Shown here: positions 3,998 to 60,861 of the stretch, piece by piece
How positions within the stretch are numbered: position 1 is the stretch's first letter
Layout: every line of letters begins with the position of its first letter
DNA from: Candidatus Woesebacteria bacterium GW2011_GWF1_31_35
GTDB taxonomy: Bacteria > Patescibacteriota > Microgenomatia > UBA8517
Assembly (NCBI GenBank): GCA_001029755.1
Contig: CP011214.1
Location: 273,564-337,563, forward strand
DNA: 64,000 bases
Reading direction: 5' to 3'
Notes under the pieces: generated by a model
Told to the model about the DNA's origin: nothing
Databases searched by the model: none
The model's input: the letters and a program-made list of their open reading frames with translations, nothing else
Made by a program: the position numbers and the translations under genes

Positions 3998-4732
3998 ATG
4001 CCAGACATTTTTATTTCAAGTAAGAATAACAAAAAAGAAGATATTAAAGATAATAAAGAATCCGGTTCTTTCGTTGAAGAAAAAAAAATAAAAACTGATA
4101 GAGGTTTTAACAAACCTCCTGTTGAGGAAATTCTCAAAAGAGAAGCTTATAGAGGACTTCATCCTATGCAGGGAAAAAAACCTCTTTCATCATTCCTTTT
4201 TAGTCCTGATGGAATTAATTTTGAGACCATGGAAGCGGAAGAAAAAGTAGTTCTCTTTTTAAGAAAACATTTAATTACAAATATTCCTTGGATTTTTGTG
4301 GGTCTACTTATGATTTTAGTCCCAACAGTAGTTTCAGCTCTTTCTATTTTTGACTCAGTTCCTGCTAATTTTAAATTTATCTTTGTTCTTATTTGGTATT
4401 TAATTACAATGGCCTACATTTTAGAAAGTTTTTTGACTTGGTTTTTCAATGTTTACATAGTAACCGATGAAAGAATAATTGATATTGATTTTTATAATTT
4501 AATTTATAAAGAAGTAAGTGACGCCAACATTGATAAAATTCAAGATGTCACTTATAAAATGGGAGGAGTTATTAGAACTCTATTTAATTATGGGGATGTA
4601 TTAATCCAAACTGCTTCAGAAGTTCCCAATTTTGATTTTTTAGCAGTTCCAAAGCCTGATATGATAGCCAGGGTTTTGCAAGACTTACGCATGGAAGAAC
4701 AACAAGAATTAGTAGAAGGGAGAATAAGATGA
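3998..4732 (+). CDS. Membrane protein with bacterial PH-like (bPH_2/YdbT-like) domain
   Basis: 244 aa. Two TM helices followed by a YIVTDERIIDID...GDVLIQTAS segment typical of bPH_2 domains. Confidence 0.4.
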   Translation: MPDIFISSKNNKKEDIKDNKESGSFVEEKKIKTDRGFNKPPVEEILKREAYRGLHPMQGKKPLSSFLFSPDGINFETMEAEEKVVLFLRKHLITNIPWIFVGLLMILVPTVVSALSIFDSVPANFKFIFVLIWYLITMAYILESFLTWFFNVYIVTDERIIDIDFYNLIYKEVSDANIDKIQDVTYKMGGVIRTLFNYGDVLIQTASEVPNFDFLAVPKPDMIARVLQDLRMEEQQELVEGRIR

Positions 4733-6760: not shown

Positions 6761-7184
6761 ATTTTTTCTCTCGTTCTATATCTCTTTCGATGTCTTTTTC
6801 CTTAATACTTTCTTTCTTCTCGAATCTTCTTTTAGGTTTTCCTAAAGTTAATTCAAGTTTAATAAGACGGCCTTTATTATACATCGCAGTAGGCACAATT
6901 TGCAACTTTTTCTGCTTTGTTTTTGTTTCTAATGATAAAATTTCATTTTTATGTAAAAGTAGTTTTCTCATCCTGGTAGGCTCATATTTTTCTATTCCAG
7001 TAGCTGGTATATTTGCATTAATTAAATAAACTTCTCCGTTTAGAATCCTTACATGTGATTGAGATAGATCTACTCTTTTATCTCTAAATGATTTGGCTTC
7101 AATTCCATGCAAAGATAAGCCAGCCTCAATTCTTTCAGGGGTTAATTCATATTCAAACCTAGCCTTTTTATTAATAATTCTCAT
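6753..7184 (-). CDS. smpB: SsrA-binding protein SmpB
   Basis: 143 aa. MRIINKKARFEYELTPERIEAGLSLHGIEAKS matches the SmpB N-terminus. Adjacent to tmRNA. Confidence 0.9.
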   Translation of the reverse strand: MRIINKKARFEYELTPERIEAGLSLHGIEAKSFRDKRVDLSQSHVRILNGEVYLINANIPATGIEKYEPTRMRKLLLHKNEILSLETKTKQKKLQIVPTAMYNKGRLIKLELTLGKPKRRFEKKESIKEKDIERDIEREKKWG

Positions 7185-9262: not shown

Positions 9263-9334
9263 GTCCCCGTAGTTTAACGGATAAAATATCAGATTGCGGA
9301 TCTGAGGCTAGAGGTTCAATTCCTCTCGGGGACA
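9263..9334 (+). tRNA. tRNA-Arg (anticodon GCG)
   Basis: 72 nt. Acceptor GTCCCCG/CGGGGAC, anticodon stem TCAGA/TCTGA with loop TTGCGGA, T arm AGAGG-TTCAATT-CCTCT. Confidence 0.6.
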
Positions 9335-9370
9335 CAAGGTATAATTAATTTTTAATTAGAACTTTTTTTT

Positions 9371-29365: not shown

Positions 29366-29445
29366 ATTTTCCTGCTCGGGTTTTAGTGGGTTCTGGGTTT
29401 ACAGTAGCGGCACTCCCACGGAATTTCACCGTGATTCACCAAATT
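29366..29445 (-). ncRNA. Candidate cobalamin (B12) riboswitch in the 5' leader of the 28409..29365 gene
   Basis: The minus-strand RNA reads GGUGAAAUUCCGUGGGAGUGCCGCUACUGUAAACCCAG...GAGCAGGAAAAUAUG. This matches the cobalamin-riboswitch core GGUGnAAnUCC...CCGCCACUGUAA (B12 box, one mismatch) and the 3' GCCAGGA-like element adjacent to the start codon. The segment is locally GC-rich. Confidence 0.45.
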
Positions 29446-29507
29446 TATTAACACATTACAGTTTATGTTACACTTTTTGTAAAGGGGTAATTTGAAATAA
29501 AAGGGGG

Positions 29508-50223: not shown

Positions 50224-53200
50224 ATGGTAAGACTTAAAAATAAAAAAATTAAAAAACAAATAAGTTTTGAAAGTTTTAAAGCTCCAACATACGAAAAGAT
50301 TAAAACTCTAATTAATAAAAAGATTGGTGCAAGACCTAGTATTCCTGATGATTTAGCAAAAGGGGATTGGACTGAACAAGCATTAAAAGTTTTAGAGGAA
50401 AGATATTTAATTAAAGATAACGATTTAAAACCAATAGAAACTCCTGAAGACATGCTTTGGAGAGTCTCTTGGGAAATTGCATCTTCAGAAGCAAGATGGG
50501 GAACTACTAAAAAAGATGTAGAAAAGATAGCACGAGATTTTTATGGTCTCATGGTTTCAAGAAAATTTTTACCAAATTCTCCAACCTTAATGAATGCTGG
50601 AACAAATAATGGTTTACAGTATTCTGCTTGTTTTGTTCTTCCAATAGAAGATTCAATGGAAGGAATTTTTGATGCTTTAAAATATCAAGCAATTATTCAT
50701 AAAACTGGAGGAGGAACAGGATTTGCATTTAGTCGATTAAGACAAAATGGATCGGTTGTTAAAACTTCAAGCGGTACTGCTTCAGGACCAATTTCTTTTA
50801 TGAGGATTTTTGATGCTGCAACAAATGAAGTTAAACAAGGGGGAAAAAGAAGAGGGGCTAATATGGGAATTTTGCGAGTTGATCATCCTGATGTATTGGA
50901 ATTTATTCATTGTAAAGAAGAGGGAGGTATTACTAATTTTAATATTTCGATTGCCTTAACTGATGCCTTTATGAAGGCTTATCAAAATGGAGAAAATTAT
51001 GACTTGATAAGTCCTAAAAACAAAGAAGTTGTTGGAAGCCTTTCTGCAAAGTTGGTTTTTGATGAGATTGCAGATGGAGCTTGGAGAACTGGAGATCCTG
51101 GTTTAATTTTTATTGATAAAATTAATAGTAGTACTGCTAATCCTGTACCATCAATTGGTGCAATTGAAGCTACTAATCCATGTGTAACAGGAAACACTTT
51201 GGTGTCTACAAACAGAGGATTAGTAAAAATTGAAAATCTTTACTTAGATAAAAGAAATACAAAAATTTTAACAGATAGTAGACTTTCAGATATTAAGTTT
51301 CAGATTCCTTCTAGGATTTTGCAGACAGGTAAAAAACAGGTTTACAAATTAACAACATTTGAGGGGTATGAATTAAGCCTTACAGGGAATCATAAAGTTT
51401 TAACTGAAAGAGGTTGGGTTGAAGCTTTAAAGTTGAGAGAAAATGACAAAATATTTATTTCTAATAGGAAGGGTAGTTTTGGTGTTGAAGGATCTCTGGA
51501 TGAAGGACAAATTATTGGATGGTTGGTTGGTGACGGAACAATGAAAAGGACTCAAGCGATTCTATCCTTTTTTGGTTACGAAAAACAGGAATTGGCACCA
51601 AAGTTTGCTCAAATGGTGGAACATTTAGTTGATGGAAAACAAATGTTAGCTAGGAATTATTCTGTTTCAGTAATTAATATTAATGACAGGGATGAAGCAA
51701 GAGTTCAATCTACAAGGTTAGCTAGATATATGAATGAAATTGGTATAGATAAAGATTCAAAATTAAAAGTTCCAGAAACAGTTTTGTTAGGAAACGAGGA
51801 GATGCAAAAAGGATTTTTGCAAGCATTATTTACCGCAGATGGTCATGTTGGTGGGAATGCAGAAAAAAGTGTCAGTGTGAGATTAACATCTATTTCAGAT
51901 TCATTATTAAAAGATGTACAGAGAATCCTTCTAAATTTTGGGATTGTAAGTAAAATTTACACAGAAAGAAGAAAAGAACAAAAAAGATTTTTACCAAATG
52001 GTCGTGGGGGATCTAAGGAATATTTGTGTAAATCATATAGTGACTTAGTAATTTCAAAATCATCTTTAAAAGTTTTTAAAGATAATATTGGTTTCTTGTC
52101 TGAATGTAAAAATATAAAACTTGTTACATTGTTAAATGAATACAAAGAAGGGCCTTATAAAGAAAATTTTATTGCTAGATTTAAAAAATTAATAAAAGAA
52201 GGCGTTGAAATGGTCTATGATTTAACTGAGCCATCTACGTCATCCTTTATAGCTAATGGTTTAGTTGTTCATAATTGTGGAGAACAGCCGTTATATCCAT
52301 TTGATGCCTGTAATTTAGGGAGCATATTTCTAACATATTTTATTAAAGATGGAGAAATTGATTGGGATGAACTAAAAAAAGTTACTAGAACCTCAGTTAG
52401 ATTTTTGGATAATGTAATTGAAGTTAATCCATATCCATTAGAGCAGATTAGAAAAACAGTCTTTGCAATAAGAAGAATTGGTTTAGGTATTGGAGGTTGG
52501 GCTGATATGCTTTTGGAACTTGGGATTCCATATGATTCAGAAGAAGCAATAACCCTAGCTGAAAAAATAATGAAGACTATTCAAGACGAAGCAGTTGAAG
52601 AAAATGAAAAATTAGCCAAAATTAGAGGAGCATTCCCACTTTTTAAGAGTTCAATCTATAAAAATGGAAAACCTAGAAGAAACTCAACCGTTACAACCAT
52701 TGCCCCAACTGGAACAATATCGATAATTGCAGGAGCATCATCAGGAATTGAACCACTTTTTGCAATTGCTTATCAACATATTGTTAAAGATAAACATTTA
52801 GATAGAAAGATGACATTTGTAAATCCTAAATTTGAAGAAGTTTCACGAAAAGAAGGTTTTTGGAGTAAAGAACTAATGGACAAAGTGGGAGAATTAGGAG
52901 TTATTCGTGGTATTAATGAAGTACCTCAAAAGATAAAAGATATTTTTGGTACAGCTCATGAGATTAATCCTGAATGGCATATAAAAACACAAGCAATTTT
53001 CCAAAAATATACAGAAAATGCTGTTAGTAAGACAATTAATTTAAAAAGTGATGCAACTGTTGATGATGTTAAAAAAGTATATCTTGACGCATGGAATGCA
53101 GAATGTAAGGGAATAACAGTTTTTAGAGATGGATGTAAAGATACTCAAGTTTTAAACCTTGGTATCAATAGTCAAAAGAAAGAAATTGAAAAAGAAGAAG

Positions 53201-53799
53201 AAAAATCTGAAGAGCCTTTAAGACATAGGCCATATGTTGTTAGAGGTTCAACATATAGGTTGTCAACTCCTGTTGGTACTGCTTTTATAACCATAAATGA
53301 AGATGAAGAAGGTCAACCCTTAGAAGTATTTATTAATGTAGGAAAAGCTGGTTCAGATGTTGCAGCAATGGCAGAAGCCTTGGGTAGAACAATTTCAACA
53401 ACCTTAAAATTTAGAGGAAATATATCAGCTAAAGAAAAGGCAAGAGAAATTGCAGAACAGTTAGCGGGGATTGGCGGGAGAAGATCAATCGGTTTTGGAC
53501 CTACTAAAATAAGGTCTCTTCCCGATGCTATAGCAGGAGCAATTTCAGTTCATTATAACTTTGGTATTAATGGATATCATAATAGTCCAAATATTTTTGG
53601 AGGAAATCAATCAAATGGAAATATTGTAAGTGAAGTAATTGCATCAGCACCACATGTTGAAGAAAAACAACAAGAGAGCCTCTTTTTGCAAGCATCTAAA
53701 GAAAAAGTGGGAGATATATGTCCATCTTGTGGAGCTTCTGCCTTAGTATTTGAAGAAGGTTGTAGTAAGTGTCATGCGTGTGGTCATTCTGAATGTTAA
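50224..53799 (+). CDS. nrdJ: Adenosylcobalamin-dependent ribonucleotide reductase (class II, NrdJ) interrupted by an intein
   Basis: 1191 aa. The extein active-site motif ATNPC|GEQPL is split by a 365-aa insertion. B12-dependent RNR features are present, including the C-terminal CPSCG...CSKCHACGHSEC. Confidence 0.85.
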   Translation: MVRLKNKKIKKQISFESFKAPTYEKIKTLINKKIGARPSIPDDLAKGDWTEQALKVLEERYLIKDNDLKPIETPEDMLWRVSWEIASSEARWGTTKKDVEKIARDFYGLMVSRKFLPNSPTLMNAGTNNGLQYSACFVLPIEDSMEGIFDALKYQAIIHKTGGGTGFAFSRLRQNGSVVKTSSGTASGPISFMRIFDAATNEVKQGGKRRGANMGILRVDHPDVLEFIHCKEEGGITNFNISIALTDAFMKAYQNGENYDLISPKNKEVVGSLSAKLVFDEIADGAWRTGDPGLIFIDKINSSTANPVPSIGAIEATNPCVTGNTLVSTNRGLVKIENLYLDKRNTKILTDSRLSDIKFQIPSRILQTGKKQVYKLTTFEGYELSLTGNHKVLTERGWVEALKLRENDKIFISNRKGSFGVEGSLDEGQIIGWLVGDGTMKRTQAILSFFGYEKQELAPKFAQMVEHLVDGKQMLARNYSVSVININDRDEARVQSTRLARYMNEIGIDKDSKLKVPETVLLGNEEMQKGFLQALFTADGHVGGNAEKSVSVRLTSISDSLLKDVQRILLNFGIVSKIYTERRKEQKRFLPNGRGGSKEYLCKSYSDLVISKSSLKVFKDNIGFLSECKNIKLVTLLNEYKEGPYKENFIARFKKLIKEGVEMVYDLTEPSTSSFIANGLVVHNCGEQPLYPFDACNLGSIFLTYFIKDGEIDWDELKKVTRTSVRFLDNVIEVNPYPLEQIRKTVFAIRRIGLGIGGWADMLLELGIPYDSEEAITLAEKIMKTIQDEAVEENEKLAKIRGAFPLFKSSIYKNGKPRRNSTVTTIAPTGTISIIAGASSGIEPLFAIAYQHIVKDKHLDRKMTFVNPKFEEVSRKEGFWSKELMDKVGELGVIRGINEVPQKIKDIFGTAHEINPEWHIKTQAIFQKYTENAVSKTINLKSDATVDDVKKVYLDAWNAECKGITVFRDGCKDTQVLNLGINSQKKEIEKEEEKSEEPLRHRPYVVRGSTYRLSTPVGTAFITINEDEEGQPLEVFINVGKAGSDVAAMAEALGRTISTTLKFRGNISAKEKAREIAEQLAGIGGRRSIGFGPTKIRSLPDAIAGAISVHYNFGINGYHNSPNIFGGNQSNGNIVSEVIASAPHVEEKQQESLFLQASKEKVGDICPSCGASALVFEEGCSKCHACGHSEC
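51181..52275 (+). mobile_element. Intein (365 aa) with LAGLIDADG homing-endonuclease domain inside NrdJ
   Basis: Starts with Cys (CVTGNTLVST), ends with VVHN followed by extein Cys (CGEQPL). Two LAGLIDADG motifs: IIGWLVGDGTM and FLQALFTADGHV. Inserted within the conserved NPC|GEQ catalytic motif of the RNR. Confidence 0.85.
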
Positions 53800-58618: not shown

Positions 58619-58691
58619 GGCTCGGTAACTCAGTGGTCAGAGTGCCAACCTTATAAGTTGGAAGTCGATGGTCCGATCCCATCCCGAGCCA
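58619..58691 (+). tRNA. tRNA-Ile (anticodon TAT / UAU)
   Basis: 73 nt. Acceptor GGCTCGG/CCGAGCC, D arm ACTC-AGTGGTCA-GAGT, anticodon stem CCAAC/GTTGG with loop CTTATAA, T arm GATGG-TCCGATC-CCATC. No encoded CCA. A TATAAT box lies at 58603-58608. Confidence 0.65.
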
Positions 58692-58709
58692 CTAAATTAT
58701 TATTAACCA

Positions 58710-59135: not shown

Positions 59136-59999
59136 TTATAGCTCAATTAAAGACTGTTTTTTACTTGATTCTGTAGTTCCTGCAAGTTCAATATATCTTT
59201 CTGTGGTTGAAAGTCTTTTATGTCCTGCAACTTGAGAAATTAAAATTAAATCAACTCCATTTTTAATGTTTTCTACAATAAATGTGGTTCTTAAATCGTT
59301 TACAGAATATTTTGGAAGTTCTGCTTTTTGAATAAATCTGTCAACTGATGCTCTTATATTTCTAACTGCAAGTGGTTTTCCGGTCTTACTGATAAAAATA
59401 TATTCGGAAACCACTTTTGGTCTTTCAATCATATACTTTTCAATTGCTTCTTTTGCTGGTTTATTTAAAGGAATTGTTCTTTCAGGTTGTGTTGCATAGC
59501 CCTCAATCTTTATAGTTTCTTCATTAATATCAGCAGTTTTAATATTAGCTACTTCTGAAATTCTTAAACCAGTTTGAAGTATTAATTCAATCATTGCAGA
59601 TATTCTAGGATCATTTCTTACAGCATCTCTTAAAGCTCTATACTCTAAAGGAGTTAAAAACTTAGGCATTGAAGCCTCCACCTTAGGATGAGATACACTT
59701 TTAGATAAATCAGTTGAAAGATAGTTTTGTTCTACCATCCATCTAAAGAATGTTTTAACAGCATTTAATTTTCTAGAAACTGATTTTGGTGTATATTTTT
59801 CAGAAAGTAGGGTATCTCTAAATGAATCTAAATTAGAAAGTTTAACTTGGTCTGGAGTTGCAATACTACCTTTAGTCAAAAATTCCACTAATTGCTCAAG
59901 ATCAGATCTATACGCTAAAATCGTGGCTGGAGACCTACCTTTTTCAGCCAAACTTGCCATGAATTTTGGCAATAAACTTTTAATTGTATCCTGTGTCAT
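59136..59999 (-). CDS. Tyrosine site-specific recombinase (XerC/XerD-like)
   Basis: 287 aa. N-terminal SAM-like domain and a C-terminal catalytic region with R...HxxR...Y (GHKRLSTTERYIE). Confidence 0.75.
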   Translation of the reverse strand: MTQDTIKSLLPKFMASLAEKGRSPATILAYRSDLEQLVEFLTKGSIATPDQVKLSNLDSFRDTLLSEKYTPKSVSRKLNAVKTFFRWMVEQNYLSTDLSKSVSHPKVEASMPKFLTPLEYRALRDAVRNDPRISAMIELILQTGLRISEVANIKTADINEETIKIEGYATQPERTIPLNKPAKEAIEKYMIERPKVVSEYIFISKTGKPLAVRNIRASVDRFIQKAELPKYSVNDLRTTFIVENIKNGVDLILISQVAGHKRLSTTERYIELAGTTESSKKQSLIEL

Positions 60000-60055: not shown

Positions 60056-60424
60056 GTGAATAAAAAATTAGTCAACATTATAGGTTTCCTAGTTTTATTA
60101 ATACTTTCAGTTGTTTTAGTCTCATCTTTTTTCAAAAGTATCAAAAGAATTAGAGAAGGTGACGCAATAATTGAAAAAACAAAGGTAAAACTTGAAAAAT
60201 TAAATGAAGAAAATAAAAAACTAGAAGAACAACTTAAAATTACTCAAAGTGAAGAATTTGTAGAAAAACAACTTCGAAATAAACTAGGTCTTGCTAAAGA
60301 AGGGGAGATTGTCCTAGTCTTACCAGACAATGAAACATTAAAAAAATTAGCTCCAGTAATCCCAGATGAAGAAGAAGTAACATTAAAACCTAATTGGAAG
60401 AAATGGATTGATCTATTTAAATGA
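60056..60424 (+). CDS. FtsB/DivIC-like septum-formation initiator
   Basis: 122 aa. N-terminal TM, coiled coil, and EFVEKQLRNKLGLAKEGEIVLVLPD motif. Confidence 0.5.
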   Translation: MNKKLVNIIGFLVLLILSVVLVSSFFKSIKRIREGDAIIEKTKVKLEKLNEENKKLEEQLKITQSEEFVEKQLRNKLGLAKEGEIVLVLPDNETLKKLAPVIPDEEEVTLKPNWKKWIDLFK

Positions 60425-60432
60425 CTCCCTTG

Positions 60433-60692
60433 TTGCGGAGCTGGGAGTTGAACCCAGCCTGCGAGATTATGCTGTTCTGTAATCTCCAATTACTTGGAGT
60501 GCCGGACTATATCTTCATCCTATTTTTAGGAGCTCGGCGTGTAGTCTCTAGGGGGTCATTTTTAGACTTCCCTCGGGATTGACCTTTTAAAAAAAAGGCG
60601 TTCCCCGATATAGCCAAGTTTCACTTTTAACATTACTATTAAAGTGGCCCAATTTTAGTTAAGCCTCGCGTGCAGCCGTACACTACCCCGCA
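60433..60692 (-). tRNA. tRNA (anticodon CAT; Met or Ile2 type) interrupted by a group I intron in the anticodon loop
   Basis: Minus-strand 5' exon TGCGGGGTAGTGTACGGCTGCACGCGAGGCT (60662-60692) and 3' exon CATAATCTCGCAGGCTGGGTTCAACTCCCAGCTCCGCAA (60433-60471). These reconstitute acceptor TGCGGGG/CTCCGCA, anticodon stem CGAGG/TCTCG, loop CT|CATAA and T arm CTGGG-TTCAACT-CCCAG. The exact splice junctions are inferred. Confidence 0.55.
60472..60661 (-). mobile_element. Group I intron (about 190 nt) within the tRNA(CAU) gene
   Basis: The minus-strand sequence carries group I core elements: an R-like AGAGACTACA, an exact S element AAGATATAGTCC (GACTA/TAGTC form P7), a P-like AAATTGGGCC, a Q-like AATCCCGAGG, and a terminal G. 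It is locally GC-rich. No ORF inside. Confidence 0.6.
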
Positions 60693-60749
60693 TATAAAAA
60701 CGTTGTTATTATAACATATGAGTTAATAATTTGGTAAAATACCAAGTAC

Positions 60750-60823
60750 GGCAGGGTAGCTCAGTTGGTTAGAGCACTGGATTCATATCCCAGAGGTCGT
60801 GGGTTCGATCCCCACCCCTGCTA
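60750..60823 (+). tRNA. tRNA-Met-type (anticodon CAT), intronless
   Basis: 74 nt. D arm GCTC-AGTTGGTTA-GAGC, anticodon loop TTCATAT, T arm GTGGG-TTCGATC-CCCAC, acceptor GGCAGGG/CCCTGCT (G1·U72 wobble). Confidence 0.75.
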
Positions 60824-60832
60824 CTTAATTAG

Positions 60833-60861
60833 ATCCGCCACAATTTGGCGGATTTTTTGTT
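60833..60861 (+). terminator. Rho-independent terminator after the tRNA(CAU) gene
   Basis: ATCCGCCA-CAATT-TGGCGGAT hairpin followed by TTTTTTGTT. Confidence 0.6.

Follow-up and report, generated by a model that had tools for sequence, protein, structure and literature searches.

What occupies window positions 60433-60692, beside a gene with a DivIC/FtsB domain, and which tRNA would this region supply? The window is the whole 64-kb stretch of DNA that was analysed. The favoured reading, to which we assign a probability of roughly 95%, is that the minus strand of this interval carries a tRNA(CAU) gene in which a compact, endonuclease-free group I intron of 190 nt separates U33 from C34. This intron is already known, being catalogued in PMC13011429. 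The additions made here are the probable initiator identity of its host, the presence of an intron at the same site in at least 22 related species, and the recognition of a XerC-like neighbour as conserved synteny.

The split tRNA(CAU) gene

An initial annotation had proposed a tRNA split on the minus strand by an intervening sequence of about 190 nt ending in G. It had called for a search with the Rfam Intron_gpI covariance model (RF00028), a tRNA scan with intron detection, and a fold in which P1 to P9 could be drawn, with a U.G pair at the 5' splice site and a P1 helix joining the end of exon 1 to an internal guide. ARAGORN and Rfam both agree on the split gene. Run with intron detection (-i), ARAGORN called a tRNA-Met(cat) cloverleaf at 60692-60432 (-) with a 190-nt intron at 'aggct-Intron-cataa', whereas its default scan, without intron detection, missed the gene. 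The same tRNA-Met(cat) cloverleaf was called again from the sequence spliced in silico, and the insertion point lies between U33 and C34 of a CAU tRNA that ARAGORN folds as a cloverleaf both spliced and unspliced. The RF00028 model aligned over its full length (model positions 1-253) to 60671-60483 (-), scoring 89.1 bits where 50 is the gathering score (E=1.9e-21). This match is far above chance, and is the only Intron_gpI match in the 64-kb window.

The order on the minus strand is UGCGGGGUAGUGUACGGCUGCACGCGAGGCU, then 190 nt, then CAUAAUCUCGCAGGCUGGGUUCAACUCCCAGCUCCGCAA. Exon 1 (tRNA positions 1-33, UGCGGGGUAGUGUACGGCUGCACGCGAGGCU, 60662-60692) ends ...CGAGGCU at 60662, and exon 2 (C34 to the discriminator A73, CAUAAUCUCGCAGGCUGGGUUCAACUCCCAGCUCCGCAA, 60433-60471) begins with CAUAAUCUCG at 60471, both being placed by ARAGORN -i and by identity to the published sequence. 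Joining 60662 to 60471 gives the anticodon loop CUCAUAA, so the exon ends and the restored loop are as first proposed. The intron, from U+1 to omega-G (60661-60472), is exactly 190 nt long, is preceded by U and has G as its last base at 60472; it is supported by the 89.1-bit Rfam match, the ARAGORN intron call and covariation across 21 homologues. There is no endonuclease ORF within these 190 nt, nor room for a protein gene. The tRNA gene does not encode CCA, the bases directly after A73 being CAA.

Upstream, at 60708-60737 (-), a promoter-like site (TTACCA-18 nt-TG-TATAAT) lies 15 nt from the 5' end of the split tRNA; judged by consensus match only, it has 10 of 12 matching positions and an extended -10 element. 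Downstream, where the split tRNA runs up against the stop codon of the convergent gene with the DivIC/FtsB domain (assigned by domain match, ending at 60424), no terminator was detected.

Other identities for the region were also considered. Neither RNase P RNA nor SRP RNA has an Rfam match there, and the tRNA is intact once spliced, which also makes a tRNA pseudogene unnecessary.

Homologous introns and the fold

Exon 1 has its first 24 nt in common with a second published Microgenomatia example, and therefore GCGGGGTAGTGTACGGCTGCAC was scanned against a species-representative genome collection, yielding at least 119 loci. Among the matches listed, those informatively named are all Woesebacteria, Shapirobacteria, Levyibacteria or 'Microgenomates'; the tRNA is uninterrupted in 97, and has an intron at the same site in 22 (L004, L009, L011, L015, L018-L020, L025, L030, L050, L051, L057, L073, L079, L082, L084, L086, L091, L097, L098, L101 and L106). 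These 22 insertions, as listed, are 184-266 nt long and occupy exactly the same site, all following U33 and all ending in G, such that the terminal G is found in all 23 introns at the site when the window's is included. None of the 22 has room for a homing endonuclease, and endonuclease genes have been reported only in tRNA introns longer than 500 bp (PMC13011429). The Rfam gathering score was reached by 19 of the 20 homologous insertions tested. The one that Rfam did not report was a 189-nt insertion in L009 (~6815-7003, minus strand), which is 75% identical to the window intron, and was probably missed at the gathering threshold through a filter effect of a large multi-source search.

Some contigs in this set have discordant titles. 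L003, L005, L007-L009, L011, L012, many other TPA 'binchicken' assemblies, and L048 are titled 'uncultured Gammaproteobacteria', 'Pseudomonadales' or 'Actinomycetota'. They carry the Microgenomatia-type tRNA, and many share the XerC/DivIC/TrpRS synteny, with up to ~70% protein identity, so these titles look like mislabels. The Levyibacteriota contig L097 also has a glmS ribozyme match (4357-4548, plus strand; 52.3 bits).

Helices were placed using the Rfam alignment, an unconstrained minimum free energy (MFE) fold and manual pairing, while covariation was assessed by projecting the window structure onto a MAFFT alignment of 21 introns. The unconstrained fold recovers P1, P2, P5, P6, P8 and P9 (z=-3.28), and P1 to P9 can all be drawn, with every element below on the minus strand. 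In P1, exon bases G30, G31, C32 and U33 and intron bases U, A and A (60659-60665) form the strand GGCU/UAA, the slash marking the splice site, which pairs with the internal guide sequence UUGGGCC (60646-60652). The 5' splice site falls directly after U33 (60662), at a U33.G wobble present in 21/21 homologues; P1 is supported by the Rfam alignment and the MFE fold, and its guide strand by the Rfam and homologue alignments. P2 (60623-60645) is a hairpin with a GUAA tetraloop (L2), recovered in the MFE fold, and all nine of its counted pairs are compensatory in some homologue. P3 joins CUUGGC (60613-60618) to GCCGAG (60533-60538), with 98.4% of cells paired and three compensatory pairs in the homologue alignment, and P4 joins UCGGGG (60603-60608) to UCCCGA (60573-60578), with 99.2% of cells paired and further support from the Rfam alignment. 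The P5 hairpin (GCCUUUU-UUUU-AAAAGGU, 60582-60599) is supported by covariation, the MFE fold and the comparison of L9 with P5 described below, and P6 (60552-60572) by both alignments and the MFE fold, although its inner stem has 50.8% of cells paired in a poorly aligned stretch of the MAFFT alignment, making the register uncertain.

The catalytic core was also as first described. The R-like element AGAGACUACA and the S element AAGAUAUAGUCC are present as quoted, and AAGATATAGTCC and AGAGACTACA form P7. Its 5' strand GACUA (60542-60546, within AGAGACUACA) pairs with UAGUC (60505-60509) and is invariant in 21/21 homologues; its 3' strand and J8/7 together constitute UGAAGAUAUAGUC (60505-60517), the stretch initially recognised as the S element, which the Rfam and homologue alignments support. 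P8 (UCCUA-AAAA-UAGGA, 60518-60531) has three compensatory pairs in the homologue alignment, and P9 (CUCCAA-GUAA-UUGGAG, 60484-60499), which is capped by a GNRA tetraloop (L9), has 100% of cells paired and four compensatory pairs; both appear in the MFE fold. The 12-nt 3' tail AUUACAGAACAG (60472-60483) ends in omega-G (60472), as called by ARAGORN and invariant in the 21 aligned introns, placing the 3' splice site between 60472 and 60471. P5abc is absent, and there is no P7.1 or P7.2 because a single nucleotide separates P3' from P8. Read from the sequence, P10 has at most 2 bp (C34-G and A35-U).

Across the alignment, 85.5% of cells were paired, compared to 73.3% with shuffled partners and 34-52% with slid partners. 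The covariation score was 0.360, compared to 0.152 with shuffled partners (0/500 of which reached the observed value) and 0.06-0.16 with slid partners. Compensatory changes occurred in 28 of the 56 pairs, distributed over P2, P3, P5, P8 and P9. Neither P7 nor the U.G pair at the splice site varies among the 21 introns, and hence covariation is uninformative for P7. The tertiary structure also leaves a visible signal, as the type of tetraloop at L9 changes in step with the type of receptor in P5: the 9/9 introns with a GAAA L9 have a P5 resembling CCUAAG..UAUGG, whereas the 15/15 with a GUAA L9 have a plain CC:GG helix. By the pairing rules of tetraloops and receptors, the P5 of L018 has the canonical 11-nt receptor, and the CC:GG step of the window's P5 is the likely receptor of its GUAA L9. 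The invariance of U-1 and omega-G, combined with compensatory changes across 21 species, therefore indicates selection on the fold of the intron.

Host tRNA, splicing and inheritance

The sequence of the split tRNA(CAU) and its homologues makes it probable that the host is the initiator tRNA. Firstly, in 114 homologous tRNAs among the matches listed, position 1 is U in 98 and C in 16, while A72 and A73 are invariant. The 1:72 position is thus either U1:A72, the Watson-Crick form found in the window, or C1xA72, the bacterial initiator mismatch, rather than a covarying pair. Secondly, UGCGGGG pairs with CUCCGCA in the acceptor stem, and the split tRNA thereby has G2:C71 and C3:G70, both listed as formylation determinants (PMC5389676). 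Thirdly, among the same 114 listed homologues, the pairs 29-31:39-41 are A:U/G:C/G.U and nearly invariant, whereas 27:43 and 28:42 vary freely and covary. Bacterial initiators are characterised at these three positions by G:C (or at least R:Y) pairs in a row, G30:C40 among them, and the au/GC/gu stem is a natural initiator variant (Shetty et al., PMC5389676). A blastn search of E. coli genomes with the spliced tRNA as query returned no match, the shared words being too short.

The alternative that best survives accepts the intron and assigns it to an elongator tRNA-Met, as published, or to a tRNA-Ile2; this we consider unlikely. Initiator tRNA-fMet has A11:U24 in place of Y11:R24. The split tRNA instead has U11:A24 (D stem GUGU/GCAC), which, together with its Watson-Crick U1:A72, favours an elongator. 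So too does the label 'Met (CAU)' in PMC13011429, which came from tFind and the best intronless BLAST hit, tRNA:Met(CAT); that pipeline (tFind/tRNAscan-SE and BLAST) gave the label 'Met' rather than 'fMet' to the split tRNA and to its intronless homologues alike, and isotype models evidently prefer 'Met' for the split tRNA. However, an elongator would be expected to covary at 1:72, keeping the pair, rather than retaining A72 opposite either U or C at position 1, and the au/GC/gu stem has stayed invariant though the pairs beside it covary freely. Furthermore, it is the neighbouring CAU tRNA that resembles an elongator: in 90 loci among the matches listed, the other CAU tRNA combines a D-arm of the standard elongator kind with G1:C72 or G1.U72. 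The complete genomes of related Microgenomatia contain no more than two tRNAs of the Met type and two of the Ile type, and one of the two CAU tRNAs must therefore be the initiator. The tRNA counts for GCA_001029755.1 itself differ between programs, with three Ile and one Met from tRNAscan against two of each from ARAGORN, in Table S2 of PMC13011429. A tRNA-Ile2(CAU) is not needed, because 57 loci among the matches listed also encode a tRNA-Ile(UAU) close by. If the host is indeed the initiator, then splicing would be obligatory for translation initiation.

The neighbouring tRNA(CAU) (60750-60824, plus strand) is intronless, and a gap of 57 nt separates it from the 5' terminus of the split gene; it probably represents the elongator tRNA-Met. 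Its anticodon stem is closed by an A31.C39 mismatch and its loop is UUCAUAU; of 89 homologues among the matches listed, 55 share the A.C at 31:39, 79 have the loop UUCAUAA, and four have UUCAUAU. Directly after it, at 60831-60855 (+), is a hairpin and T run resembling an intrinsic terminator. The tRNA-Ile(UAU) lies near both CAU tRNAs (58619-58692, plus strand), and the recurrence of this trio in 57 of the loci listed suggests a lineage in which AUA decoding dispenses with a lysidine-modified tRNA-Ile2. Elsewhere in the window, a tRNA-Arg gene (9263-9335, plus strand) has the anticodon GCG, which is uncommon in bacteria; this gene is also found in nine related loci among the matches listed.

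Beyond the fold, splice-site geometry, conservation and identity to the published entry, which are all observed, we infer from established group I chemistry that the tRNA(CAU) intron is catalytically active in vivo. Transcription of the gene would produce a 260-nt precursor, in which the intron would fold into P1 to P9, with G30-U33 paired to the internal guide UUGGGCC so that the U33.G wobble marks the 5' splice site. An exogenous guanosine held at P7 would then attack after U33, the freed 3'-OH of U33 would attack after omega-G, and the ligation of U33 to C34 would generate the anticodon loop CUCAUAA. In PMC13011429, splicing was assayed in vitro for two introns only, one in a tRNA-Asn and one in a tRNA-Asp. 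It is very improbable that the insertion is instead a decayed, non-splicing remnant in a tRNA pseudogene, as might be argued from the missing homing endonuclease and the weak P10. Such decay is contradicted by the full-length covariance-model match with every core element, by the invariant U-1 and omega-G and the compensatory changes in P2, P3, P5, P8 and P9 across 21 species, and by exons that are intact and near-identical to intronless homologues; it also fits poorly with the promoter-like site upstream, and with there being no second copy of the split tRNA in the window.

The split tRNA is flanked by genes for a DivIC/FtsB-family protein, a XerC/D-type recombinase, a TrpRS and a tRNA-binding protein. 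The recombinase is a 287-aa ORF of the Phage_integrase/XerC type (59136-59999, minus strand), 433 nt from the 3' end of the split tRNA; this distance, and the 57 nt to the second tRNA(CAU), agree with those first given, but the accompanying hint that either neighbour matters does not hold. The recombinase is beside the tRNA in 96 of the 119 loci listed, whether an intron is present (19/22) or not (77/97), and is therefore ordinary conserved synteny unrelated to the intron. It is extremely improbable that the intron is part of a mobile or integrative element tied to the recombinase and the tRNA pair since, although tRNA genes are common integration sites and a tyrosine recombinase gene lies 433 nt away, that gene is retained regardless of the intron, the DivIC and TrpRS synteny is conserved as well among the matches listed, and the boundaries fall exactly within the anticodon loop, with group I hallmarks rather than att-like repeats.

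The group I intron itself is patchily distributed, occurring at 33/34 in at least 22 of 119 related species among the matches listed, or about one in five of the Microgenomatia sampled. Among the same matches, three intron types occur within one host cluster, and the introns nearest to the window's are those of L004 (83% identity), L097 (77%) and L009 (75%). The L097 and L009 hosts have only 43-45% XerCD identity to the window, and the L004 locus is without XerCD; yet listed hosts at 70% XerCD identity carry other intron types, and the closest listed host, L042 (81%), has no intron. Intron identity and host XerCD identity correlate with a Spearman coefficient of 0.10 over 153 pairs, a rough single-marker comparison rather than a phylogeny. 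The combined proposal, that the intron interrupts the sole initiator tRNA gene in these reduced genomes and has also been inherited non-vertically, we regard as quite improbable. Were it true, the intron would have moved between species independently of an endonuclease, possibly through reverse splicing, or through recombination via the nearly invariant tRNA exons, and the supply of initiator tRNA could depend on ribozyme activity, and so on guanosine and Mg2+.

Other elements were also noted in the window. Genes for a ribonucleotide reductase and FtsH each contain an intein with a LAGLIDADG endonuclease, according to precomputed Pfam matches (L001 1-2926 and 11327-14536; window positions ~50874-53799, and 62200 to the window end). 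Hence, with the group I intron, this small genome hosts several self-splicing elements near one another. An AdoCbl-II (cobalamin) riboswitch match is located at 29380-29454 (-), scoring 38.8 bits against a gathering score of 36.5.

Relation to known tRNA introns

Little is at stake in the intron as such, which is a catalogued member of a classical class, albeit one whose ribozyme and splice sites could be recognised from raw sequence in the initial annotation. The consequences would be greater if the split gene is the initiator tRNA, as splicing would then be essential in an organism with a genome of ~0.75 Mb. For the annotation of CPR genomes, this probable identity, the patchy distribution of the intron among Microgenomatia and the au/GC/gu, U1:A72 initiator variant, which standard isotype models seem to call 'Met', could be useful.

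Nakagawa et al. (mSystems 2026, PMC13011429) list the split gene in Table 1 and Table S3 as 'Met (CAU) 33/34' of GCA_001029755.1 (Microgenomatia), and their 260 nt agree with the window's at every base, splice sites and 190-nt intron included. The window's source is evidently the same Microgenomatia (Patescibacteria/CPR) organism or population. The only departure is in the label, published as 'Met', whereas the analysis here points to the initiator. The initial comparison with known tRNA(CAU) group I introns was apt, as bacterial tRNA introns have four classical sites, among them 33/34 of tRNA-fMet ('fMet.2Ug'), where introns occur in Cyanobacteriota, Pseudomonadota and Bacteroidota (Williams 2020, bioRxiv 10.1101/2020.01.27.920355). 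Like these, the window intron is inserted after U33 and before C34, with U-1 and omega-G, and would share their kind of host if the initiator assignment is right. The classical introns are typed as IC3, and some cyanobacterial examples contain PD-(D/E)XK endonuclease genes, whereas that of the window has 190 nt and no ORF. Two Bacteroidota fMet introns showed modest similarity to the family HMM, at 27-39 bits.

No Patescibacteria tRNA intron was assigned to IC in PMC13011429, as none scored best in that class. The window intron nevertheless has core features of the IC3 type, with P2 present, P5abc, P7.1 and P7.2 absent, and GUAA at both L2 and L9. IC3 introns have a compact core with P2, lack P5abc and P7.1/P7.2, and have L2 and L9 tetraloops that dock in P8 and P5. 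By these features, the architecture looks IC3-like. When the family profile HMM was compared with labelled IC3, IB and IA introns, the highest scores outside the family, 61 bits for an IC3 Arg(UCU) intron and 58 bits for the Patescibacteria Asp intron, did not decide the subgroup.

The Azoarcus pre-tRNA-Ile(CAU) intron, an IC3 intron of ~200 nt in the anticodon loop at site 36/37, is a structural parallel: both are compact, at ~200 nt, interrupt the anticodon loop of a CAU tRNA, and have P2 to P9 without P5abc. By our reading, the GNRA tetraloops at L2 and L9 of the window intron match the L2-P8 and L9-P5 contacts of Azoarcus. The two differ in site (33/34 rather than 36/37), in the AT-richness of the window intron, and in its weaker P10. 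The Azoarcus pre-tRNA-Ile(CAU) group I intron is also referenced in PMC13168695.

Within the same genome, GCA_001029755.1, the tRNA-Asp(GUC) intron at 35/36 self-splices in vitro, according to PMC13011429. Its size (196 nt) and core are similar to those of the window intron, and its 58 bits to the family HMM are the third-best score overall, and the second-best outside the family. It lies outside the window, and differs from the tRNA(CAU) intron in both its host tRNA and its position of insertion.
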